DNA of 50,205 nt from positions 31,819,796 through 31,870,000 of the forward strand of contig NW_027361752.1 of the NCBI RefSeq assembly GCF_039654945.1, written 5' to 3'. The translations under genes and the position numbers were made by a program. This DNA comes from Dendrobates tinctorius. Lineage: Eukaryota. The first letter of the stretch is position 1. Each line of letters starts with the position of its first letter. Shown here in pieces: positions 5,986 through 50,205 of this stretch. Under the pieces are notes generated by a model that made no database searches, was not told where the DNA came from, and saw only the letters and a list, made by a program, of their open reading frames with translations.

Positions 5986-6603
5986 GAAGAACCCAAACTT
6001 GATGTCCTCATAAACAACGCTGGGGTCTTCCAGTGCCCCAATACGAAGACTGAAGATGGCTTTGAGATGCAGTTTGGGGTGAACCACCTCGGCCACTTCC
6101 TGCTCACTCACCTGCTGATCGGCCTCCTGAAAAGTTCTGCCCCCAGCAGGATCGTGGTCGTCTCCTCCAAACTTTACAAATACGGTGAGATCAATTTTGA
6201 CGACTTAAACAGTGAAAAGGACTACAGTCGAAGCTTCGCCTACAGCCGCAGCAAACTGGCCAATATCTTATTCACTAGAGAGCTGGCCCGGCGCCTGGAA
6301 GGGACCGGAGTAACGGTCAACGTACTTCACCCCGGGATAGTCCGAACCAACCTGGGAAGACATATCAATATCCCCGTCCTGGTAAAACCTCTCTTCAATG
6401 TTGTATCCTGGGCTTTCTTCAAATCCCCGGCTGAAGGAGCACAGACATCAGTCTTCTTGGCCTCCTCTCCTGAAGTAGAGGGGGTGTCTGGAAAATATTT
6501 TGGGGACTGTAAAGAGGAAGACCTTATACCAAAGGCTATGGACGATTTGGTTGCCAGAAAACTCTGGGACATTAGTGAAGTTATGGTCGGACTCATTAAA
6601 TAA
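5986..6603 (+). CDS. RDH14: Retinol dehydrogenase 14 (SDR family), terminal coding exon; exon 1 not found in the window
   Basis: Acceptor ttttttgctttctag at 5985, then [18 protein letters not shown]...[13 protein letters not shown]...YSRSK (YxxxK)...[16 protein letters not shown], matching vertebrate RDH14. Confidence 0.95.
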
Positions 6604-7450
6604 AATTTAGAGCTAATCAGACGTCGACTTCCATGTAATGAACCGAGGAGAAAGACGGAAATAAGAAGACGCCTCCTCCTCAATCACAGTCATTTGTAAA
6701 TGTGAATCCTTGTGTCTCCCTCCGTCGTCCATGTCACGTTTGTTATATCTGTTAGATGAAATGGGCAATTAAAAGGGAAGTCGTTCCCACAATACTCATC
6801 ACTCATCCTATTCTGCTCCTCTCCAAGTTCCCATGCCCCAATAATGACGCCCTGACACACAAAACATGATGTCCCCACCCAATTGCTGGGCACTGTGGCA
6901 ACCTGCTGCAGCCAGTGATTGATGTTACCTCTGCAGCCATAGAACCAGTCTGCATTGAAATGGGAGCTGCAGTAGATTGGCGAGATATTTTGTTTCTTAA
7001 TCTATTTTACCCCATTCTAAGGGGTTTTTTTTTAGTACAGGGGCTAAACATAGAGTGCCTGTTTTCTGGGTATAAAGGAGCAGTTTACTGGGGATTCTCT
7101 CTGTGCCTGGATAGGGAGCGACTTCTAGCCTTTCCACACCACTTTAGATCAGCTCTACGGAAATAGGAACTGGGGCGTGATATGGCTACACCACTCCAAA
7201 CTCATGACAACCGCCAGAATTTCCCACCCCAGAAAAGTTTATCGAGTCTCTGACTACAGTTGTGTTTCTGGCACAGCACACAGGAGTGCACGCCACTTAC
7301 AAGAGGCCCCAAATTCAGTAAGCAGCGTGCTCCTCTGTCGAGATTGGTGTAGTGCGAAGTCTCGCTCAAACATTACATGAAAAAAATACCTAAACTTATT
7401 AGGTATCTACATTTACTACAAACATTTCTATGGATGATTTGAAATAACAT

Positions 7451-7562
7451 TTTCCAGGACGTCCACCTGACAGCACTATGGAGGACGTCCTCCTCCTCCT
7501 TACAGGGACAGGAAAGCACACGAGAGGTTAAAAGGCCATGTCCCACCCCCTTTCTCTCAGTG
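7451..7562 (+). repeat. DIRS left inverted terminal repeat
   Basis: TTTCCAGGACGTCCACCTGACAGCACTATGGAG...CTCAGTG is the reverse complement of 12614-12725 with a few differences. Confidence 0.95.
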
Positions 7563-8077
7563 TTTTTCCTGTCCCTGCACGGAGGGACACGCGAGAGCTT
7601 ACCGGAGGGACCCAGGGGATCGTGCGGCCGGTCCAATCCTTCCCCTGTCAAGAGGTCCCGGGGCCGAAACTTCCCGGTGGGGAGTCCCTCGGCTCCAAAG
7701 GCCAGGAGCAGGACGGCGCTCCTGGAGGGAGCCGTTCCTCCCGGTGGGGGGGGCTCTCGGCTCCAGGACGGGTCGGCTCCCCGCAGGCGGCTGGCCATGC
7801 GGGCACCGATAGAAGTGGGGCGGCGGGCCGAGTACCCGCAGGACGCGCTGACGCTGGGCAGTGGAGGCCGGAGCGTCATAGCAGGAAAGGCTCCCTGCTC
7901 GCGCCGAGTGCGGTCGCGCGCAGATGCCCGGCAGGAAGTGGAGGCGCGGCTTACCAGCGTCACATCCGGTGACGTCAGACGCCGGTTTCAAATCCAGGGC
8001 GCGCGCGCTCCTGGACCAGAGCGTTCTCCAGCGTCACAGGTGGTTCCAGACTGTGTGACTGCATCGGACGCCAGGGG

Positions 8078-9497
8078 ATGGAAGGCAACACTGCATCTGG
8101 TGGAGGGGTAAGTGCGCATAGCGCAGACCACCCTCCCCACCCGTCCCCACAGCCCAGATCTGATGAGGTGCCCCTTATATTATCAGGAAAAGGGAACCCC
8201 GGCTGAGTCCCCCTCGGGGAAGGACCCGGCGAAAGCCACCGCCAAATCAGTCAGATGTCCGGTGTGCAGAGTAAAGCTGCCAGACACCTATAGCAAGACC
8301 CTATGCGGTCCCTGTACCTCCAGGGTCATAGGCGAGGAACAGCCATCTCTGCTTTCCGAAATGAGGTCGCTGATAAGGGAAGAGATTCAGGCCTCTACGT
8401 CCCGGCGTCGATCCCCCAGCCCTGGGCCAGGTCGCAAGCGTCCAAGGTGGGAACCAGTCCCAGTATCAGAGGCGAGCCCTAGCGAGGAATCCGATTTCCG
8501 GAACTCAGATCAGGAGGAAGAAGGCGAGATCCTGGGGGACAGTCAGGAACAGAACAGAAAGTATCTGTTCAGACTGGAGGATACGGACGAGCTGGTACAC
8601 GCGGTCAGAAATACCATGCAGATGGAAGAAGTCCCTAAGCCACAGTCCAGACAGGACTTAATGTTTGGAGGACTGGTGTCCCGCAAACAGGTGGTGTTCC
8701 CTGTGAGCGAGCACATCAAAGCAATGATCCAGGAGGAGTGGAAGGAAGCAGAGCGTCGGTTGACACTCTCCCGAATCTTTAAAAATAGACTGCCCTTCGA
8801 TCCCGAGGAAACTCGGGCGTGGGAAGAAGTCCCTAAGATCGACGTCCCGGTGGCCAAGGTTACGAAGAAATCGGCTATCCCAGCCGAGGACTCATCCGGT
8901 CTTCGAGACCCAATGGATAGAAAGGCGGACGTCTTGTTAAAAAGAACATGGGAGACGTCGGCGGCCCTGATTAGAGCCAACATAGCAGCCACCTCGGTGG
9001 CCAGGTCTATGTTCCTGTGGTTGGGGCAGTTGGAGGAAAACCTAACCAACAAGACCCCGAGGTCAGAGATACTAGCATCTCTTCCTCTTTTGAAATCAGC
9101 CACGGCGTTCCTGTCGGATACGTCGGCGGAATCTGTTAGGTTTGCGGCCAGAAACAGCTCCCTCTCTAATGCGGCCCGGAGAGCAGTCTGGCTTAGATCC
9201 TGGTCGGGGGATAACCCTTCTAAGGCCAAGTTATGTGCCATCCCTTTCTCGGGTCTGAGGGTGTTTGGTCCAGCCCTGGATAATATCCTTGAGCTGGTGT
9301 CTGATAAAAATAAGGGATTCCCGGAAGAAAAACCCAGGTGGTCCCAGTCCTTTCGGAGAGGCTCCTTCTTCAGAGGACAGTCAGAGTTTAGGGGCCGGGC
9401 GAGTTCTAATAGAGGCTCCTACAGAGGCTCCTTCAGCCAAAGTGGGAAGAACAGAGGTCCCCCATTTGCATCGACATCTAGGTCGAGGAGACAATGA
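8078..9497 (+). CDS. DIRS gag-like ORF1 (N-terminal CxxC..CxxC finger, LAP2alpha-like body, RG-rich tail); predicted spliced 8078-8107 + 8187-9497, 446 aa
   Basis: ORF 8112-9497 contains CPVC...CGPC and WEEVPKIDVPV...LRDPMDRK...ARRAVWL. ATG in ggggATGG context joins in phase 0 through GTAAGT (8108) ... TATCAG (8186). The splice is inferred. Confidence 0.85.
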
Positions 9498-11379
9498 CGC
9501 CATAGGCATTGGGGGGAGACTTCGCCACTTTGCAGCAAACTGGTCGCGAGTCACCAACAGTCAGTGGGTCCTCAGAACCATCAGAGAAGGTTACAGGATA
9601 GAGCTCTATTCTCCTCCCCCCGACAGATATATTGCCCCCACTGTCGTCCTGGAGGACTCCGCAATGTGGTCGGATCTTCAGGACATGTTAGACTCGGGGG
9701 TCATAATACCAGTTCCAGCATCAGAAAGAGGGAAAGGTCACTACTCTTCCCTGTTTGCAATTACAAAGAAATCCGGCGAGACCCGCACCATCATAAACCT
9801 GAAGCCACTAAATGCTTGGGTCAGATACAGGAGGTTCCGGATGGAATCTATCCGATCCGCGATTCCTCTGATAGACAGGGACGCAGTTATGTGCACCCTA
9901 GACCTAAAAAAGGCATATTATCAGGTTCCTATTCATCCCTCATCCCAAAGCCTACTAAGGTTCGCGATCAGTTCACCAGCCCGGACCTGCCATTTCCAGT
10001 TCCAAGGTCTTCCATTCGGGCTGGCCTCAGCTCCCAGAATCTTTACGAAACTGGTGGTAGAGGTGGTGGCCTACCTGAGAGATCAGGGTATTGTGATTGT
10101 GCCGTACCTGGACGACTTCTTACTGGTGGCAAGATCCAAAGAAGCGCTCATCCGAGACAGGATCCGAACAACTACTGTGATGGAGTTCCTGGGCTGGGTG
10201 ATCAACTGGGAGAAGTCGGACCTCACACCAAACACCAGAAAGGTATTCCTGGGAGTCCTCCTAGACTCAGCCGACAGAATATCCTGGCTACCCGAGCAGA
10301 AGCAGAAGTCCATTCAGGCCAGAACCAGAGGTCTGTTGAAGCGTCAATGCTCCATAAGGGAAGCAATGGAGGTCCTGGGCCTCATGACGGCATGCATCCA
10401 GTGTGTCCGTTGGGCCCAATTCCACTCGCGGTTGTTACAAAGAGAAATTCTCGCGAGGTGGGACAGGAGTCAGGCGTCGCTAGACAAACCCCTAAGACTC
10501 TCAGGACGAGCAAAGGAGTCCCTTCGCTGGTGGTTACAGGCCAGGAACCTTCAGGTGGGCGTGCATTGGACAACCTCTCCATACGTGGTAGTCACCACAG
10601 ACGCAAGTGCGTGGGGATGGGGAGCCTACATAGAAGGGAAGATCTTCCAGGGGAAGTGGCCAGCAAGCATCAAGGCCAGATCCTCCAATTTCAAGGAACT
10701 CTTCGCGGTCTGGGCAGCGTTGCGGAGAAACCGGTCGGTACTAAAGAGTCGTCATGTTCGCATTCTATCCGACAATACAACGACAGTGGCATTCCTGAAA
10801 CACCAAGGAGGAACCAGACATCAACCACTACAGGCACTGGCGGAAAAGATATTCACGTGGGCAGAACGGACAGTTCGATCCGTGACCGCGGTACATCTAG
10901 AGGGTTCCCAAAACGAAGTGGCGGACTACCTGAGCAGACAACAGATCCACCCGACAGAGTGGGAATTGAACATAGAGGTCTTCAACCAGCTTTGTCAGCG
11001 CTGGGGGAACCCCAGTATAGATCTCTTCGCAAGCCGCAAGAACTCGAAGGTTCCCAGATTCTACTCCCTAAATCCAATGGACCATCCAGAGGGCGTAGAC
11101 GCCCTGAGTCAGACTTGGGGAGAATCCCTCTCTTATGCGTTCCCACCACTGGCCCTCATACCGGCAGTGCTCAGAAAGATACGCGAGGACCACGCAAGAG
11201 TGATATTGATAGTGCCATACTGGCCGAGGAGAAGCTGGTTTTCCCTTCTGGGAGCCATGGCAGTAGAAGATCCAGTCGAGCTGCCCTTGTGGGAGAACAT
11301 CATCCACCAGGGCCCGATCCACCACCCGGACCCAGCAAGACTGCATCTATCGGCCTGGATCCTGAGAGGGACATCCTGA
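9259..11379 (+). CDS. DIRS pol: reverse transcriptase, RNase H and N6-adenine methyltransferase-like domain (start undefined)
   Basis: GGRL..F...W; LDLKKAY; LPFGLASAPRIFTK; YLDD; RNase H TDAS, KEL, SDN, ADYLSR; MT-like IDLFAS...YAFPP. Confidence 0.95.
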   Translation, partial: GCLVQPWIISLSWCLIKIRDSRKKNPGGPSPFGEAPSSEDSQSLGAGRVLIEAPTEAPSAKVGRTEVPHLHRHLGRGDNDAIGIGGRLRHFAANWSRVTNSQWVLRTIREGYRIELYSPPPDRYIAPTVVLEDSAMWSDLQDMLDSGVIIPVPASERGKGHYSSLFAITKKSGETRTIINLKPLNAWVRYRRFRMESIRSAIPLIDRDAVMCTLDLKKAYYQVPIHPSSQSLLRFAISSPARTCHFQFQGLPFGLASAPRIFTKLVVEVVAYLRDQGIVIVPYLDDFLLVARSKEALIRDRIRTTTVMEFLGWVINWEKSDLTPNTRKVFLGVLLDSADRISWLPEQKQKSIQARTRGLLKRQCSIREAMEVLGLMTACIQCVRWAQFHSRLLQREILARWDRSQASLDKPLRLSGRAKESLRWWLQARNLQVGVHWTTSPYVVVTTDASAWGWGAYIEGKIFQGKWPASIKARSSNFKELFAVWAALRRNRSVLKSRHVRILSDNTTTVAFLKHQGGTRHQPLQALAEKIFTWAERTVRSVTAVHLEGSQNEVADYLSRQQIHPTEWELNIEVFNQLCQRWGNPSIDLFASRKNSKVPRFYSLNPMDHPEGVDALSQTWGESLSYAFPPLALIPAVLRKIREDHARVILIVPYWPRRSWFSLLGAMAVEDPVELPLWENIIHQGPIHHPDPARLHLSAWILRGTS

Positions 11380-12392
11380 AGGCAAAAGGATTGTCGGAGC
11401 AGGTCATATCCACCCTACAGGCCAGCAGGAAGCCGGTGACGTCGGCAATTTATCGGAAGATATGGAGGAGATTTTGTCTGGAGGGTGGCAGGTCCGAGCT
11501 CGTGGCAGGTACCCCGGATCTCCCTAACATACTAGGGTTCCTGCAGGCAGGTTTTAATAAAGGCCTCAAGCCCAGCACTCTAAAAGTCCAGGTTTCAGCT
11601 TTGAGCGCCTTCTTTGATTATCAGTTAGCTGCACATCCCTGGGTGATAAGGTTTATAAAAGCCACACAGCGCCTGCGTCCCACGATTAGGCAGCTCACCC
11701 CGCCATGGGACCTGGGCCTGGTACTTCGGTTCCTCTGCTCGGACACTTTCGCCCTTAGTGAGAAGATAACCATCCCTGCTCTCACTCGTAAAACGGCCTT
11801 TCTAGTAGCCATTACCACGGCCAAAAGAATAGGGGAGATCCAGGCCCTATCCACTAAGGATCCATACCTCCAGATAAGAGAGGATAGTATAATCCTAAGG
11901 TTAGACCCGGCATTTACCCCGAAGGTAGCCTCTACAAGAAATCTGAATCAGGAGGTAGTGTTACCCTCTTTCTGTGATAATCCCCGAAATGAGGAGCGGC
12001 GGCTCCACTCGCTAGACGTGAGGCGCGCAGTTATAGAGTACCTAGAGGCCACCAATAGTTGGCGTATCGACCCGAACCTGTTCGTTCTCTTTGGGGGTAG
12101 GAATAAAGGGAAGAGGGCCTCTAAGGCGTCCATAGCGCGTTGGATTACCTCAGTAATCTCGGACGCCTACCAGGCTGAAGGCGCCAGCCCGCCTGATTCC
12201 TTAAAAGCCCACTCTACAAGGGCGGTATCGGCCTCATGGGCCGAGCGGGCGGGGGCGTCAGTTGATCAAATTTGTCGAGCGGCAACCTGGGCTAGTCTTA
12301 ATACATTCTGCAACCATTACAAACTAGATGTGTTAGCTGGCCAACAAACCGCATTCGGGAGAAAAGTTCTCCAAGCAGTAATCCCACCCTGA
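9498..12392 (+). CDS. DIRS tyrosine recombinase ORF (catalytic part about 11370-12392) with a long N-terminal extension overlapping pol
   Basis: RIGEIQAL (R), PKV (K), HSTR (HxxR), AATW, NHY (Y). The frame is open from just after the gag stop. Confidence 0.93.
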   Translation, partial: RHRHWGETSPLCSKLVASHQQSVGPQNHQRRLQDRALFSSPRQIYCPHCRPGGLRNVVGSSGHVRLGGHNTSSSIRKRERSLLFPVCNYKEIRRDPHHHKPEATKCLGQIQEVPDGIYPIRDSSDRQGRSYVHPRPKKGILSGSYSSLIPKPTKVRDQFTSPDLPFPVPRSSIRAGLSSQNLYETGGRGGGLPERSGYCDCAVPGRLLTGGKIQRSAHPRQDPNNYCDGVPGLGDQLGEVGPHTKHQKGIPGSPPRLSRQNILATRAEAEVHSGQNQRSVEASMLHKGSNGGPGPHDGMHPVCPLGPIPLAVVTKRNSREVGQESGVARQTPKTLRTSKGVPSLVVTGQEPSGGRALDNLSIRGSHHRRKCVGMGSLHRREDLPGEVASKHQGQILQFQGTLRGLGSVAEKPVGTKESSCSHSIRQYNDSGIPETPRRNQTSTTTGTGGKDIHVGRTDSSIRDRGTSRGFPKRSGGLPEQTTDPPDRVGIEHRGLQPALSALGEPQYRSLRKPQELEGSQILLPKSNGPSRGRRRPESDLGRIPLLCVPTTGPHTGSAQKDTRGPRKSDIDSAILAEEKLVFPSGSHGSRRSSRAALVGEHHPPGPDPPPGPSKTASIGLDPERDILKAKGLSEQVISTLQASRKPVTSAIYRKIWRRFCLEGGRSELVAGTPDLPNILGFLQAGFNKGLKPSTLKVQVSALSAFFDYQLAAHPWVIRFIKATQRLRPTIRQLTPPWDLGLVLRFLCSDTFALSEKITIPALTRKTAFLVAITTAKRIGEIQALSTKDPYLQIREDSIILRLDPAFTPKVASTRNLNQEVVLPSFCDNPRNEERRLHSLDVRRAVIEYLEATNSWRIDPNLFVLFGGRNKGKRASKASIARWITSVISDAYQAEGASPPDSLKAHSTRAVSASWAERAGASVDQICRAATWASLNTFCNHYKLDVLAGQQTAFGRKVLQAVIPP

Positions 12393-12409
12393 GGAGGTGC
12401 TTTGGTACT

Positions 12410-12496
12410 CTCCATAGTGCTGTCAGGTGGACGTCCTGGAAAATAGGTATTAGACCTACCGGTAATGATGTTTCCAGGAGTCCATCCTGACAGCAC
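12410..12496. repeat. DIRS internal complementary region (ICR)
   Basis: First part is the reverse complement of the left ITR start; second part is the reverse complement of the element's 3' end. They join across AAAA, which predicts the circle junction. Confidence 0.95.
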
Positions 12497-12613
12497 GGGT
12501 AGTTCCCTCCCTCTTATGTTATACTATGTTGTATTATGTTATGTCATATGCTGTAATATGATTGTTTCATTAAACCGTTACTAGCATCATCCACCTTGTG
12601 GTACTTGTCAAAT

Positions 12614-12755
12614 CACTGAGGGAAAGGGGGTGGGACATGGCCTTTTAACCTCTCGTGTGCTTTCCTGTCCCTGTAAGGAGGAGGAGGACGTCCTCCATAG
12701 TGCTGTCAGGATGGACTCCTGGAAACATCATTACCGGTAGGTCTAATACCTATTT
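12614..12755. repeat. DIRS right ITR plus right extension
   Basis: Inverted copy of 7451-7562, then CATCATTACCGGTAGGTCTAATACCTATTT. Confidence 0.95.
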
Positions 12756-15315
12756 TTTTCTATATACATTACATTGTGTGTATGCCAAAACTGCGTTAAA
12801 TAATACAATTTGTGTCTGATACAATCATGGCAGAAGGAAAAAAGTCACTGCTTCTACAATGCAGAGTCAACCTGATGGACATTAAAGAGCAGATAATTCC
12901 CAAATTTTAACCTATCTTAAGGAAAGGTAATTTGCTGATGGTGGGGGTCTGACTGGTGGGAATAGCACCGATTCCGACAATGGGGGAACGACTGGAGTGG
13001 AGCGGTGGTCTCGCACAGGCGGACTGGAGTGCTGCACTTGGCTAATGGGGCATTTCATAGACCGGCTCTTGGGGTCTGTGATTGTAGTAACCCTTCTCGG
13101 GGTGAATATGAACCTTTATGGGGGGATTGTGCACTGAGATGATGTGTATAAATGTCTTGTGCTTCCTTGAGGCCTGCAATGTAGATCTGTAGAGAAGTCA
13201 TGAAGTGTCATTCTGTGGACGCCGTGTGTGTACAGCGCTGTACAACTTTTATTAAACGGGTCATTCAAAAACCAAACATTTACTCTGAGTCCAATCTGTT
13301 CACAACCGACTGCTGAGCTTTCCTGGGAAATGGGAAAGCGTTAATGCACACACTGGACCCTTCCCCATGGTTAGGACTGGCAAATATTTAATGAGTATGA
13401 CACCTTTAAAAGTGTAATTATCTAGACCTTCATATTGGGGACATCGATCCTATAAAAATAATCCTGTTACTGTTGATTTCAGTAAATGGGTTTTAAAGAA
13501 AAACAATTACATGAATAAGGTGGTTTTGGTCCACCCTTGGTGCACCCACGGGATGCACAGATATGTCCCCTCGATTACAATAGCCTCCCCTCATGGAGGT
13601 TTGGAGCACAGTCTGGTCCAACTCCCCAGCCCTTAATATACGGACACTGGAGCGCCTGTATACACAGTGTCGGTGTGCAGGAGAAGCTCTCTTCTCTGTG
13701 TATAGCAGCCGCCAGTGCTGTCGTTCCGTGTGTAGCGAGCGGCTGCTCTACACACAGGAGAGGGAGAGGATGGCGTGCCTGCACAGACGGCTCGTGCACA
13801 CTCTCAGGCCCTGTAGTGTCAGTGCAGAGTTAGATCAGAGACAACGCCATCATGGGTTGGATCAGTGCCTCGAATGCATGGCTACCCCAAGGGTGCACCA
13901 ATTTAAAAAATTATAGGAGAGAAAATCCTCACGTTTACTGAACTTTGATGTTTTATAAGGACTGAGTCCCAAATATGAAGATCTGAATGGTTAAATTTCA
14001 CTTTTGGGGATGACAGACTTCCTTTCTAGGAATTGAACCTATATCGGCAATTTTTAGAAGAGACCGTTACTTTACGATGGTCGGCAGTCCGACTCTTGGC
14101 TAATACTGCACATTACATGAAGATTTGCCGGAAAGTTTATCCCATTCATTGCAAAGGGTGAAATCCGCATTGGAAGAAGTGATTTATTTCGGATTCCAAA
14201 GTCCAGACCAGGATATGTTCCGCTGGTACTGTAATATGTAACATCTCCTTTTTTTTTTTCTGGCATTTTGGATCACAAGGGCCAGTACAAGAACTGTATC
14301 TGCGCTGAGAAGAAGCAGCAGGGCGCTGGTTCACAAACGACGTAATGGCGGCAGAGACTGCCTGTTTAGAGAAGTGAAGGAACCTCTGTGTTAACAGGCC
14401 GCTCTGTGTCGGGAGAGATCATTGCAGGGCAGTACAGGCAGGTAGTTAGCAACTGCCTGCTGCCAAGTGCTTAGTACCATAGAAGACAAAAGCCCTAGAT
14501 AACCCCTTAAAGGGAATGTTCACACAGGACACAAATTGCAGTGGACAAAAAATATTGCAAATTTGCAACATAAATTGACTCGTTGCAAATTTATAGCACC
14601 ACTTCAGCAGGTTTTATTTTTTAATCTCGTCGCTGAAGTGGGGCAGCTAGATATACGTTCTCTGGCACTAGTATAATACCAGCTGCCGTCTTCAGCTCCA
14701 GTCCTGCGCCATCTTGTGACCCCCAACGTCTGAATGACCGGAAGTCAGAGGTAACAGTCATAAGCGTTCAATAGAAGTTTGAGACCCTCGTTCTGGCTCT
14801 ACTGCATTAACATTGAGTTGGGGTCCGCCCAGCAAACACTGGAGAGACCACCGCAGCTCAGAGCGGCGCTAATAATGGATGAAGACGACAACTGCTAAAT
14901 AAGACTAGGGGCATTGAACTTAGATTATTAGCACCATAGATTAGAGCGCTGCAAGAAAAAAACACCCTCTGGAGTGGCGCTTTGAAGTCCGCACTCCAGG
15001 GTCTGCGTATATTCTGTGCAGCATCTAGGTGAGATTTGGTAAGATCTATACAGAAATCCTGCAGCGTATCTGCTCGTGCGAATGGCTGGTCATGAATAGT
15101 TTGTGCACTGTCAACATGGAGTAAGTACTTGGAAGAGCTGCAACTACAGATGTGGAAACACTCAACGAGTGGCGTTGTTGGCTGACTGCTGTGCCACTCC
15201 ATTTATCTCTCCCACATGCCTATTTCTAACTCTTCAGTATGTAGCGTGTGCCTCTGTCTACCCCCAGAGTGCTGTTAGATGATGGGATGTAATATAACAT
15301 TGGGCCATCCATGCC

Positions 15316-30426: not shown

Positions 30427-31989
30427 TTTATTTCCTTTGGCAGGGAGGGTCTCTTTGCTGAGAGGCCCTGGCACCCATAGTACTTTTATGTGTGCTGTTC
30501 CAATTTTTTGTATTAAAAAAAAGAAAAATTGCTGTGTGTAATTGTACTAATGTTTTACTCCATACTACGTTGAAGATTAAGACTGAAATTAGAATCAAAA
30601 TGGCAAAATATAGATTAAAAAAAAGGTCAAAGTCGTATGAACTCCAAAAACCAACTACAACTTATATTGCAAAAACAAGTCATACGGTTTGAAAAATAAA
30701 GGTATGGCGACTGAAACCAAATGGCTTTCAATTTTCAACACTAGCAAGGGGTAATATGTTTGAAATGCCTCAATAATTGCAGCACATAATGAAATTGCCA
30801 CCCTCGCCTTGTTCTTTCACACGGTGTAACATTGATAAAATGCATATGAAGAGCCATGTGTGAGTGAATGAGGCCTAAAATAGGATTTACTATTGCTTAC
30901 AGCCATGAGGAAAGATAAGTACACCCTATTAGAGTTGTATGGTTTTGCGTATCGGGACATAAAGGGAACCCGCCGCCTGAATCATTGGCACAGCCAAAAG
31001 TTTTACCATAACCAGGTTCCCCGCATCATGTTCCCACATGCTTTATGCATCCATTAGCCCTCTGCGTCTGTACTGTTACACACTTAACATTATGGCTGGT
31101 CCATACAATCAGGGCAACTGTTACCACCCACCTTTCGTGTCTCCCCTTTTTCCCTCATAGATTGTAAGCTTGCGAGCAGGGCCCTCATTCCTCTTGGTAT
31201 CTGTTATAATCTATGTGATTATTGTTATGCTGTAATGTCTATTGTCTGTACAAGTCCCATGTAAAGTGCTGTGGAGTATGTCGGCGCTATAGAAATAAAA
31301 TTTATTATTATTATAATCTCGCTGCCTAATCCGCGGGCAGCATAAATTGGATTCTGGCTTTACAATTGCAGCCAGGTATATTTTTATTTGAAACTCTGTT
31401 TCAGGAGAAATAATCTTTTAAATGGTTTGTCTCAGAAACTGAGTAAACATTTAATCTATAGATCTTGGAATAATAATCAGTTCCACATTTGGATATATTA
31501 AAAAAAGAAAATAAAAAAATGTTCCTGTTCTGAGGTAATCTTCTATATGTGACCCTGCTATGTACTGTGTTTGCGATCATGCAGTGCATCGGAGCTCGTA
31601 TGTCACAGACTTGATTTATGATGAGCTCACAGGACTGGTGACACAGCAGAAACACTCGCTTTTGTGATGAAACAAACAAGCAGAGAAAATGTGCTGTCTC
31701 ACATAAAGAAGTAGTTGCAATTCCCTTGTGTGTCATCAGTATACTCACTTCTGCCAGAAGATTAACACTTGAGGACTTGTACACCTGCTGCCATGTAGTC
31801 CTCCATAGTCATGATCTCTGTATAACCCTGCCCCCTCCAGTGAATAGCAGCTTTCTGCCTATGTACAGTGTAGTGTGATGTGGGGTTATACAGAACTCCG
31901 CATACTCAGCAGTTCTCTACCTGCTAGATCTGCAGCGACACAGTGCCATCTATATCTGGTGTAATCTGCTTCTCTTTGTTCGTTTCCAG

Positions 31990-32184
31990 ATCCACTCCAG
32001 TGGTCCACAGACCAAGTGCTACACTGGGTGCTATGGGTGATGAAGGAGTTTGGTATGACCGATATCAATGTGAACGCCCTCAGTATTCCCGGAAGAGAGC
32101 TCTGCCAGATCGGGCAAGAAGACTTCTTTCAGAGAGTCCCCAGAGGCGAGATATTATGGAGTCATCTGGAGCTGCTAAGGAAAT
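31990..32184 (+). CDS. GABPA: GABPA coding exon 5 (Pointed/SAM domain: PLQWSTDQVLHW...GEILWSHLELLRK)
   Basis: ttccag / gtacga boundaries. Confidence 0.96.
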
Positions 32185-32835
32185 GTACGAAAACGTTCAG
32201 GACATGTGCAGAGGAAATGGTTCTTATGTGTCTGCATGTAATAGTGTTCTTGCTGGTGTCAGCGCTCTGCTTTCAGAGGCCGACTCTATTGGCCCATTGT
32301 GTATTGTCTGACAGGCTGGCTACACTTAGTGTAAGATGTGTTATGTGGCTCTTCTGTATGACTACTGAATGGTAAGGTGTGTCCAAGCAGCCGGCTGAGT
32401 GTGGCAGGTCCTGCTCGTCTACCCCGCTGTTTGGCAAACCTCAGGAAAGACTGATCATGCAGGGATTAGATTGGGCCAGTGTGCTCCAGAGCACAAGCAA
32501 CTCTGCAAAATGTTTTTTTTCTTTTTTTTTCTCTGTTGGATGTGCATCTGTGACCGGCATATATCCTCTTAGTGCATATGAGCCCCAGTATATAAATAGG
32601 TTTCCTGCTAACAAAAAGCCCTTTTATTTAAAAAATGTTAAACACCTTAGAGCAAATGGACGTGCCTGTAAGTCCACATATGTGTAGGGGGCATAGGAGC
32701 TGAGCCCTCGCAACATGCAGCAGATGTCAGCTCTGTTTAACAGCCAGCGTCTGCCTGTAACGGCTTTGTTTGCAACTCTGTTTAACCATTTAGTTGGAGT
32801 CAGAGACCCTGATCCCAGCGATGTGTCGTTTACAG

Positions 32836-45818: not shown

Positions 45819-46911
45819 CATAGAATCGTAGAGTTGGAAGGGACCTCCTGGGCCATCTGGTCCAACCCCCTGCTCTAAGCAGGATTCGCTAAATCATCCC
45901 AGTCAGATGTCTGTCCAGCCTCTGTTTGAAGACTTCCATTCAAGGAGAACTCACCACTTCTCGTGGCAGCCTGTTCCACTCATTGATCACTCTAACTGTC
46001 AAAAAGTTTTTTCTAATATCTAATCTGTGTCTCCTCCCATTCAGTTTCATCCCATTGCTTCTAGTCTTTCCTTGTGCAAATGAGAATAAAGTTGATCCTT
46101 CTACAATGTGACAGCCCTTTAGATATTTGTAGACAGCTATTAAGTCTCCTCTCAGTCTTCTCTTTTGCAAACTAAACATTCCCAAATCCTGCAACCTTTC
46201 CTCATAAGACAGGGTTTGCAGACCGGTCACCATTCTGGTCGCTCTTTTCTGAACTTGCTCCAGTTTGTTGATGTCTTTTTTAAAATGTGGTGCCCAAAAC
46301 TGGACACAATATTCCAGATGAGGTCTGACCAAAGAGGAGTAGAGGGAAATAATGACTTCACGTGATCTAGACTGTATGCTTCTGTTAATACATCCTAGAA
46401 TTGCATTTGCCTTTTTTGCTGCTGCATCACACTGTTGACTCATATTCAGTCTGTGATCTATTAGTATACCCAAGTCTTTTTCACATGTGCTGTCACTTAG
46501 CCCTATTCCTCCCATTCTATATATGCTTTTTCCATTTTTATTGCCCAGATGTAGTACTTTGCATTTCTCCCTGTTAAAAACCATTCTGTTAGTTGCTGCC
46601 CACTTCTCCAGTTTATTTAAATCTTTTTGAATCCTCTCTCTCTCTTCTCTAGTATTAGCTATCCCTCCTAGCTTTGTGTCATCAGCAAATTTAATCAGTT
46701 TACCCTCAATTCCTTCATCTAAATCGTTGATAAAGATGTTGAACAATACAGGGCCCAGGACAGAGCCCTGTGGTACCCCACTTGAGACATTCTTCCAACT
46801 GGATGTGCAGCCATTTACGACCACTCTTTGGGTCCGATCACTAAGCCAGTTATGAATCCACCTAACAGTTGCCTTGTCCATTCCATACTTAATCATTTTT
46901 TCAATAAGGAT
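45819..46911 (-). mobile_element. 5'-truncated CR1 LINE (C-terminal RT, ORF 46896-45940) nested in element 2
   Basis: SGVPQGSVLGP, FADD, SLVRPHLEYCVQFW, LQKRRLRGDLI; 3' tail ATTCTATG; 5-bp TSD TGTTT at 45814-45818 and 46912-46916. Confidence 0.95.
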
Positions 46912-47037
46912 TGTTTGGGGGACACTTCAGCGTTTTCTGCTGCTCACAGAATCTCGGTAGGCTCTGCTCTGAGGCAAAGATTAGCTCTCCTCGGCAGTTA
47001 TTCCTTAAATCCTGCGGCCATTCAGTGCAGTCTACTT

Positions 47038-48527
47038 ATGCCCAACCCTTCAGGGGATCTCTGCTTCAGGCCCACCGCTATCTATTACGCCTGTGCGCGC
47101 TGTAAAAAGAAGTGGGCATCGGGTCAGTCGTCTCCATTCTGCCCCCCCTGCAGTCCTTCCAATATGTCAGCATCTCAGGAGCGCACAGAGTCCCGGGCGG
47201 AGGGCGCTCTTCCCTCCTCTCTCCCCCCGGAGTGGGCCGTTACTTTTGTCAAGTCAGAAACAGACTGTGACATTGTATCACAGTCGCTGGTCCAGGTTTT
47301 AGAACGATTACCTCAGCTATCCTCAGCCACCTCTGCCCCGACCACCTCTCGGGGTGAGTCGTCCGCACCTGACCGCGACCTTCAGAGAGACAGACTGGGA
47401 AGGTCTTCTAGGAAGCGGGCTCTGTCCACTTCGTCCTCGAGCTCGCAGGGCCCTTCCGCTCCCAGGCCTCCTTCTCCTTCCTCAGATGACAGCCTTCAGT
47501 CAGGCGATGATTCTCATTCGGAAGCTAGCTCTGAGGGGAACAGCGTTTCTAAAACGCGGGACATGGTCGATAGTCTTCTTGCAGCTATCTTCCAAACACT
47601 AAAACTTAAACAGGATGAGGCTCCAGCTCAGGAAAGCTCGGTTGTCCTTAGACGAGCCAGACCTCCGTCCCGAACCTTTCCCAATCACAACGATTTCAAT
47701 ACTACCTTAGCCAAACACTGGGAGCGCCCTGAACAACGTTTCTCAGGCCGCAAGTATTTGGACGTTCTGTACCCCTTTGACGCAGAACTGCTCTCAAAGT
47801 GGTCCAAGGCTCCAGAGGTAGATCCTCCAGTATCCCGGATAGCCTCTAAAACGGTGCTCTCTCTGCCAGACGGGGCGTCGCTCAAAGATCCTACTGACAG
47901 GCAGATTGAATCTCTGGCTAAGTCTATCTTTGAGGCATTGGCGCCTCTCTCTGCCCTATTTTCGCATCCGCCTGGGTGGCGAAGGTCATTTCCGCTTGGG
48001 CAAAAATCCTTCGCAGAGGCATCTTAGCGTCAGCTCCTCAAGACGAATTGGCAGATCTTGCAGATCAGATTAACCAGGCGGGAAAATACCTTTTGGCCGC
48101 CTCCTTAGACGCGGCCGGCTGCGTAGCAAGGGCTAACAGCAACATAGTAGCTGTACGCCGAGTCCTTTGGCTAAAGTCATGGAATGCGGACACTACTTCG
48201 AAAAAGTCGCTTACCAATCTGCCATTCCATGGCTCTAGGCTCTTTGGAGCAAAGCTGGATCAGATAATTTCCGATGCCACTGGAGGCAAAAGTACTTCGC
48301 TTCCCCAGTCTCGACCAAAACGTCCCTTCAATAGAAGGGGGTTTCGACCATTCAGGCCTTTTCGTCCCTTCTCTGCCACGGAGAGAGCCACTCAACAGGA
48401 TCGGCCGCCTGCCACCAGGGAGCGGGATCAGAGGAAACCTTCCTACAAACCCGCTCCTCGCTGGAGATCTAGAGGACAATATTCCAGATCTGCAGGAGCC
48501 AATTCCGGCAGATTTTCGTCTAAGTGA
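47038..48527 (+). pseudogene. Element 2 gag-like ORF with a 1-nt deletion frameshift near 47937
   Basis: CARC...CPPC finger; WSKAPEVDPPV...LKDPTDRQ; homology resumes in another frame as GASLCPIFASAWVAK...VRRVLWL. Confidence 0.85.
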
Positions 48528-50205
48528 CGGGTCACCCCCACCTGGAATTTCTTCCAGGGTGGGCGGCAGACTTTCCTTTTTCGCGGATGCTTGGCTGTCC
48601 GTTGTAGACGACGATTGGGTCAGAGAACTCGTCGCATCCGGTTACAAAATCGAATTTGCTTCACTCCCGAACAGACGGTTTTTCCCGGTCTCGGCCTCCG
48701 CGACAGCGGGCCCAGATTCCGGGTTTTCTGCAGGCCATTTCCTCCCTTCTTTCCGCCGGAGTCATTGTTCCCGTTCCCTCAGACGAACGGTTTTCCGGGT
48801 TCTACTCCAATCTCTTTGTAGTCCCGAAGAAAGACGGCTCTCTTCGTCCTATTCTGGACCTCAAATTGCTCAATCGCCACGTGAAGATTCTTCATTTCAG
48901 GATGGAGTCTCTTCGGTCGGTGATTGCTTCCATGGAGCCCGGGGAATTTCTCTGCTCGGTGGACATTCGGGATGCCTATCTCCACATTCCAATATGTGTG
49001 CAACATCAGAAGTATCTTCGATTTGCGTTTCAGGGAGACCACTTTCAGTTCACAGCTCTTCCTTTCGGCCTGGCTTCAGCGCCCCGGGTTTTCACGAAGG
49101 TGATGGCGACTGTGATGGCCATCCTTCGCTCCAGAGGGATCCTCATCATCCCTTATCTGGACGATCTTTTGATCAAGGGTTCGTCTCGCCAGGACTGTCT
49201 CCGGAGCCTTCAGATAACCCTGGACACTCTCAGCCGCCTAGGTTGGCTAGTCAACAAGGAGAAGTCCATTCTGGTCCCCACCCAGCGTCTGACCTTTCTG
49301 GGTATGGAATTCGACACGGAGCTAGCCCGTGTTTTTCTTCCAAAGGAAAAATTTACAACTCTGTCCAAGTGCATCAAAACTCTCAAGAGGCCTGCTCCCA
49401 TTCCCATTCGGTTCGGCATGAAGGTCCTGGGGAAGATGGTGGCCTCCATGGAGGCAGTGCCCTTTCCGCAGTATCACCTTCGCCCTCTCCAGCTGTCTCT
49501 GCTTTCAGCCTGGGACAAGACCACGATGTCCTTGGACCGTCCTATTCGGCTTCCTCTCAGAGTGAGGCAGTCTCTCACTTGGTGGCTACGGCCAGCGTCA
49601 GTTCTCCAAGGGAGGTCCTTCCTTCCGCCTCAGTGGCAAATCATCACCACCGATGCGAGCCTTCTAGGATGGGGAGCCGTGTTCCATCAGAAAGCGGCCC
49701 AAGGACGCTGGAAGCCACAGGAGTCTCTCCTTCCTATCAATCTTTTGGAGATCAGGGCGATTTTCCTGGCCCTTCTTCACTGGCAGCCCCTCCTTTCCGG
49801 CAAGCCGGTCCGCATTCAGTCGGACAACGCCACGGCCGTGGCGTACATAAACCATCAGGGGGGTACGCGCAGCAAACAGGTAATGTCAGAAGTGGCCAAG
49901 ATATTCCGCTGGGCAGAATGTTACGTTCCGACAATCTCCGCCGTCCATATTCCAGGGGTGGAAAATTGGGCAGCCGACTTTCTCAGTCGCCAGGGCCTAG
50001 CGTCCGGCGAATGGTCCCTGCACCCCGCGGTTTTCTCTCAGATATGCGACCGTTGGGGCACCCCGGATGTCGATCTCATGGCATCTCGGATGAACCACAA
50101 GGTGCCGCAGTTCGTAGCCAGGTCCAGGGACCCTCTAGCCGTCGCATGCGACGCACTGGTGACTCCGTGGTCCCAGTTTCAACTTCCGTATCTGTTCCCG
50201 CCTCT
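48268..50205 (+). pseudogene. Element 2 pol (RT-RNase H-MT), partial, with a 1-nt insertion near 48685
   Basis: VGGRL..F...W...GYKIEF; after the extra C: FYSNLFVVPKKDG, DIRDAY, LPFGL, YLDD, TDAS, SDN, ADFLSR, DLMAS, YLFPP. Confidence 0.9.

Follow-up and report, generated by a model that had tools for sequence, protein, structure and literature searches.

We find that TCC_TTT_CGG, a motif in the gag frame of a DIRS1-like retrotransposon (element 1) of Dendrobates tinctorius, is a real, conserved signal and not a chance occurrence, and we put at roughly 80% the probability that it acts as a UUU_CGN +1 frameshift site feeding the pol open reading frame (ORF). In the mechanism that we propose, most ribosomes would continue to the gag stop and make Gag (446 aa predicted), while a few would slip from UUU to UUC at positions 9351-9354, with tRNA-Phe in the P site and CGG waiting in the A site, to yield a Gag-RT-RNaseH-methyltransferase protein of about 1073 aa. 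A few others would read through the UGA-C gag stop to give a Gag-recombinase fusion of about 1411 aa, and a single RNA could in this way supply all three proteins as Gag fusions. We infer slippage and readthrough from the motifs, frames, conservation and codon bias described below, and by analogy both may occur at levels of about 1%.

Element 1 lies in a window (the whole stretch of DNA that was analysed) of 50,205 nucleotides and is a complete DIRS1-like retrotransposon with inverted terminal repeats (ITRs), an internal complementary region (ICR), gag, RT-RNase H-methyltransferase and a tyrosine recombinase. Its features, in window coordinates, are:

7451-7566, no strand: left ITR, 94% complementary to 12610-12725
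8078-8107, plus strand: predicted first exon of gag, 10 codons from its ATG, in phase with the remainder
8108-8186, plus strand: predicted 79-nt gag intron (GTAAGT...CAG, phase 0), with short introns at the same place elsewhere
8187-9497, plus strand: gag main exon with LAP2alpha domain (PF11560, E 2.6e-15) and Arg/Ser/Gly-rich tail
9256-9258, plus strand: last +1-frame stop (TGA) ahead of pol
9259-11379, plus strand: pol ORF of 706 codons between stops (RT, RNase H, Dam-like methyltransferase), frame +1 to gag
9348-9356, plus strand: TCC_TTT_CGG in the gag frame, predicted +1 shift site from sequence and conservation
9492-9498, plus strand: gag stop in CAA TGA C context, predicted readthrough site
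9498-12392, plus strand: 964-codon ORF in the gag frame that covers all of pol, with the recombinase at its end
12410-12496, no strand: ICR, 100% complementary to both termini
12610-12756, no strand: right ITR (complementary to the left ITR) and extension

A domain search of element 1 placed RVT_1 over the cut-off in pol and the RNase H and Dam matches under it; the recombinase match (Phage_integrase, E 1.6e-4) was likewise under the cut-off, with the HSTR motif present, and no integrase match of the DDE type was returned. Within the long ORF, the 627-codon stretch overlapping pol (9498-11378) gave no Pfam match even at E 5 and is possibly a linker only. Given the predicted 79-nt intron near its start, Gag likely begins at 8078: the ATG and GT donor of the predicted first exon are also present in related subfamilies, and families of two RT clades have short predicted introns at the position of this one, within which a further ATG (8163) falls. 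The sequence-only reading from which this analysis started had missed both this intron and the recombinase ORF that opens in the gag frame after UGA-C. Elsewhere in the window we noted a short-chain dehydrogenase exon (5986-6603, plus strand), which we take to be RDH14-like, an exon resembling an ETS pointed domain (31965-32375, plus strand), presumably GABPA-like, and, adjoining element 2, what we take to be the 3' part of a CR1-like LINE reverse transcriptase (45940-46926, minus strand).

The motif sits 31 codons into the 80-codon gag/pol overlap of element 1, and the pol frame is open from there onwards. Our coordinates agree with those first proposed for element 1 (TGA at 9256-9258, TCC_TTT_CGG at 9348-9356 in the gag frame, pol at +1 and open from 9259) as well as with those for element 2 (TAA at 48265-48267, TTT_CGA at 48342, CCT_TTT_CGT at 48357-48365 and an acceptor-like TTTCTTCCAG at 48548-48557), and conceptual translation bears out the junction SQSF/GEAPSS and gives 1071-1073 aa for the Gag-Pol product, which had been predicted at about 1070 aa. 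The sequence-only reading had also held that pol lacks an early ATG, which is true of element 1 (first ATG at 9664, past GGRL at 9510) but not of element 2, whose first pol-frame ATG lies at 48274, two codons past the TAA, and not at 48902, a position put into a different frame by the break in the RT frame of this copy. The relevant features of element 2 are:

48268-50205, plus strand: pol, disrupted by a frame change near the beginning of RT and truncated at the window end
48274-48276, plus strand: ATG in the pol frame, present in 3/3 intact copies of that family
48342-48365, plus strand: two TTT_CGN sites in the gag frame, also in two other loci (L061, L119)
48522-48528, plus strand: gag stop, AAG TGA C

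An RT-start pattern gave 12,415 matches in this 6.36-Gb genome versus 196 for the reversed control. The junctions compared are a non-random sample (the places listed first for a few contigs, with targeted picks added) and comprise 156 distinct junctions in 54 clusters, 79 of them with an intact gag tail, with 40 loci added later. In class A, pol is at +1, gag terminates at TGA (mostly TGAC) and its frame runs on for ~965-1005 codons to the recombinase; in class B, pol is in the gag frame behind one stop, mostly CAA TGA CTA G; in class C, pol is at +1 with a variable stop and no long ORF. These classes and a 28-41 codon window were set after seeing the data, and single decayed copies were assigned by stop context; L126 (TGAC, no long ORF) was assigned to class C by kinship and later shown to carry the class C intron described below. 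Class A is found in all three deep RT clades, which are ~40% identical, and classes B and C each form one group within one RT clade.

With one copy per family picked blind to the motif, an in-frame TTT_CGN was present in the gag tail of 15/16 class A, 1/4 class B and 0/4 class C families, a between-class contrast that rests on about two losses because B and C are one group each. Fisher tests between classes overstate this contrast, since the families are related and the motif-less classes probably have one origin each, and an independent-pairs test gave no significant result (5 pairs, median p 0.25, with L276 and L315 coded motif-less although the motif is present). Within class A the motif lies 29-40 codons past the LFG motif, TTTCG is the top in-frame 5-mer of the gag tails, and synonymous-codon shuffles of the 16 tails gave a mean of 5.2 motif-bearing tails and a maximum of 12 in 20,000 rounds, compared to the 15 observed. 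The codon bias that the sequence-only reading had called for is indeed seen, as TTT-CGN encodes 20/29 Phe-Arg pairs in these tails when ~14% would be expected. The sole class A exception, L181, has CTT_CGG, and its siblings have TTT_CGG.

Counted by eye, the first 100 listed of 280 matches in element 1's clade comprised 63 TTT_CGG, 35 TTT_CGT, 1 TTT_AGG and 1 CTT_CGG and no TTC, while the third Arg base and nearby synonymous sites vary between subfamilies of the clade. Among the 40 later loci, 4/4 intact class A copies carried the motif versus 0/11 intact copies of other layouts. TTTCG in any frame occurs 100-260 nt before RT in 31/38 class A, 2/9 class B, 2/8 class C and 2/7 unclassed clusters, compared to 58/784 gag-body control windows (from all 196 junctions, intact or not). 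The motif was found in 45/47 intact class A copies, and the expectation that it should lie 3' of the last +1-frame stop held for 42 of the 45 copies that have it; the other three have a +1 stop downstream of it, probably through decay after insertion. One in-frame pol family of this genome (L094) has TTT_CGN though its pol is not at +1. Open frames of 1043-1045 aa, inspected in L022 and L025, were ruled out as a shared fusion, as they arose from gag indels upstream (L025) or loss of a +1 stop. None of 91 pattern matches in viral contigs was a relative.

The bias recurs in an independent set of metagenome loci. Of 80 such loci, 12 had too little upstream DNA and 68 were mapped, giving 49 with layout A (collapsing to 36 families), 4 with in-frame pol, 8 with pol at -1 and 7 broken or too short. 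An in-frame TTT_CGN was present in 13 of the 36 families (shuffle mean 7.0, p 0.0013), with 13 in frame 0 versus 3 and 3 in the other frames, and some in-frame TTT_C in 22/36 (shuffle mean 14.9, maximum 21 in 3000), with 14 having neither. Phe-Arg is encoded TTT_CGN at 15/23 pairs in the overlap versus 5/28 in the gag body (p 0.0012), which upholds the predicted codon bias in this set too. The motif is not universal across DIRS families: 23/36 metagenome layout A families are without TTT_CGN. Where it occurs, it can be close to the overlap start or as little as 7 codons ahead of the stop (a range of 7-77 codons), and the codon 5' of it is TCC, TCT or CCC at 10/15 sites. One locus does not fit (L276), having pol in frame and a TAA stop, yet TTT_CGC.

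The UGA-C gag stop of element 1 is probably read through to the recombinase ORF, to judge from the arrangement of the DNA: because this stop is followed by a 964-codon in-frame ORF ending in recombinase, readthrough would likely give a second fusion. Over the first 380 pol codons the gag frame contains 0 stops in 5 class A copies, where about 10-11 would be expected (minimum 3 in 500 shuffles), versus 19-25 gag-frame stops over pol in 7 class B and C copies; two further class A copies, with 7 and 10 such stops, look frame-broken. The gag stop is TGA in 43/43 intact class A copies, 38 of them TGAC, and is TAA in 0/36 metagenome families versus 16/43 pol and recombinase stops (p 2e-5). Since classes B and C lack the Asp that the pol frame encodes across the gag stop, protein constraint fails to explain TGAC. 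A search for RNA structure 3' of the gag stop found none that was consistent (z -0.1 for element 1, -3.1 to +0.9 across 25 families).

When pol lies in another frame relative to gag, the signal at the junction changes with it: UGA-CUAG accompanies in-frame pol, classic -1 slippery heptamers accompany pol at -1, and a 94-nt intron is present in the motif-less +1 clade. In class B, where pol itself would need readthrough, CAA TGA CTA G splits gag from pol 18 nt before GGRL (L137, L164, L171, L095, L103). The recombinase of this class may be served by a phase-1 acceptor located 21 nt ahead of the SDN motif, for which donor searches identified no donor. The in-frame and spliced classes have a shorter recombinase ORF, and a search at its start found no shared -1 slippery site; what they do have is a fixed-place phase-1 acceptor. 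Past the last -1 stop, 7/8 metagenome loci with pol at -1 carry a gag-frame G_GGA_AAC or U_UUA_AAC (L270, L289, L315, L280, L287, L303, L308). Two loci (L291 and L315) have a long recombinase ORF in the +1 frame together with in-frame TTT_C sites; in L315, TCC_TTT_CAA lies three bases ahead of the heptamer, with the recombinase ORF at +1.

Class C has lost both the motif and the UGA-C with its long ORF, and its sequences indicate that it likely makes pol by splicing. A donor, G|GTRAG, is found three codons before LFG in 31/31 intact class C copies versus 0/48 class A and 0/15 class B copies, and together with a branch-like sequence, a pyrimidine tract and an AG it delimits a predicted intron of 94 nt in 11/11 class C copies examined (L032, L047, L179, L101, L317, L320, L133, L141, L112, L340, L126). 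As 94 is 3n+1, removal of this intron would put gag into the pol frame, and splicing from the same donor to a phase-1 acceptor in RNase H would lead into the recombinase frame. A comparable search for a 3n+1 intron in the motif-less metagenome families yielded, with a vertebrate-style matrix, candidates in 2/14 that are not convincing.

The alternative that the class of element 1 also makes pol from a spliced mRNA, for example by joining the first gag exon to an acceptor ahead of RT, with the motif incidental, draws on the existence of DIRS introns in this genome (the 5' gag intron and the 94-nt gag-to-pol intron of one +1 clade), but we consider it improbable. The spliced pol that the sequence-only reading had offered as an alternative is thus probably real in class C, yet has no conserved donor in class A: the internal donor is missing from every intact class A copy, no strong gag donor or in-phase acceptor is shared by the class (rough matrices), and the acceptor-like TTTCTTCCAG of element 2, which that reading had singled out, is in phase 2 and not shared. 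Phase-0 acceptors are weak in element 1's clade, the best scoring at most -0.7 compared to 1.7 to 7.7 in 12/13 predicted gag introns (rough matrix), and splicing leaves the codon bias unexplained. Contigs from 4/9 sequencing runs (none recorded as RNA) over 7300-12800 contained no joint at the gag-pol junction, one of them covering 7930-11708 gap-free; since the predicted gag intron does not show up as spliced in them either, these contigs count neither way.

A +1 shift at the gag stop codon itself, of the antizyme or Euplotes type, could take the place of one at UUU_CGN, as all +1 families have a pol frame that stays open past the gag stop and several motif-less metagenome families (L240, L255, L260, L246, L241, L298, L285, L293) end gag in TCC_TGA, TTT_TGA, CCC_TAG or AAA_TGA. 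These contexts resemble known shifty stops. A shift at the stop may hold for some motif-less families, and one stop might there serve shift and readthrough alike. For element 1 we regard it as very improbable, because the pre-stop codon in this genome is mostly CAA, which is unable to re-pair at +1, because the same CAA UGA C is also found with pol in frame, where a +1 shift would be a dead end, and because the TTT_CG bias is unexplained by a shift at the stop.

It is more doubtful still that Pol starts on its own, from an internal AUG or non-AUG codon or by reinitiation past the gag stop. Pol-frame AUGs before GGRL do occur in most copies of 10/17 families of this genome, including that at 48274 in element 2, and in 20/36 metagenome families; they are, however, scattered (-330 to -63 in this genome) and absent from 12/14 intact copies of element 1's family and from at least four other families, and initiation at the first AUG of element 1 would remove the conserved GGRL block. 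Least probable of all is that TTT_CG is kept for some other cause (RNA packaging, a DNA/RNA binding site, or Phe-Arg with shared ancestry): the motif position in the frog families is common by descent and an in-frame family retains TTT_CGG, but the metagenome sites, at their varied distances from the stop, still favour frame 0, TTT_CG is lost where splicing or readthrough takes over, and protein-level selection is blind to TTT versus TTC and to CGN versus AGR, while CpG decays in vertebrates.

We return to the UUU_CGN shift as our preferred reading for element 1, and we lean, with more reserve, towards a general scheme in which DIRS elements across eukaryotes would make Gag fusions from one RNA, with a PA-X-type shift for Pol and readthrough for the recombinase, and in which lineages would freely swap in UGA-CUAG, -1 sites, or a 94-nt intron sharing its donor with a long recombinase intron. 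How DIRS pol and recombinase ORFs without their own start are expressed was left open in the literature covered, and exact sites are now proposed. The scheme would carry UUU_CGN frameshifting beyond RNA viruses, into elements that are very abundant in eukaryote genomes (with 12,415 or more junction matches in this one), with hundreds of natural variants from which to learn what stimulates this poorly understood shift, and would show frameshift, readthrough and splicing replacing one another at one gene junction. If true, DIRS would count as the first case of a nuclear, genome-encoded family that relies on the UUU_CGN shift at scale, and the long pol/recombinase overlap would be explained as the cost of gaining access to the recombinase through readthrough.

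What looks new is the exact site and the exchange of one device for another, the kinds of recoding themselves being known. Full-text literature searches returned no link of DIRS to UUU_CGN or readthrough; Poulter and Butler 2015 and two related papers may already suggest either in general terms, and supplements with Repbase-style annotations could bear on novelty. The accessible text of PMC13003380 quotes Poulter and Butler 2015 for frameshifting proposed for the Ngaro YR ORF, that of PMC5009743 makes no mention of DIRS, and PMC8547959 gave no keyword match; accessible parts of PMC7192593, PMC5633606, PMC3783388, PMC6681497 and PMC2685390 were also covered.

In its anatomy element 1 resembles the DIRS1-like YR retrotransposons, with three ORFs, LAP2alpha gag, RT/RH/MT, a long YR overlap, ITR and ICR (PMC3266345; bioRxiv 2021.08.05.455354), whose ORF overlaps are described in the accessible portions of these sources, the latter a Xenopus survey, without a translation mechanism. 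Among recoding systems, influenza A PA-X undergoes a 0.7-1.3% +1 shift at UCC_UUU_CGU (Firth et al. 2012, PMC3498833) and shares with our site the core, the direction, the UCC-like 5' codon, the CGN A-site codon and the lack of an evident stimulator (PMC3498833). Unlike PA-X, the DIRS site uses CGG or other CGN codons, belongs to a nuclear retrotransposon, would give rise to a replicative enzyme and is here a predicted one. The UUU_CGN of the amalgavirus ORF1-ORF2 junction is likewise placed where a structural gene overlaps a +1 polymerase gene, all four CGN codons are used and some members are without the motif (Nibert et al. 2016, PMC5052127); amalgaviruses differ in being plant dsRNA viruses, and the accessible text describes no second recoding at the ORF1 stop (PMC5052127). 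In class B, gag and pol are separated by exactly the UGA-CUAG motif that in vertebrate genes supports readthrough (Loughran et al. 2014, PMC4132726), whereas element 1 has a weaker UGA-C(GC) context that leads to a recombinase ORF, unlike the UGA-CUAG genes. Finally, Ty1 and Ty3 of yeast are also retrotransposons that make Gag-Pol via a +1 shift (named in PMC3498833). They differ from DIRS in needing scarce yeast tRNAs, in being far more efficient and in being LTR elements with an integrase. Their shift sites differ as well, being CUU_AGG_C and GCG_AGU_U.
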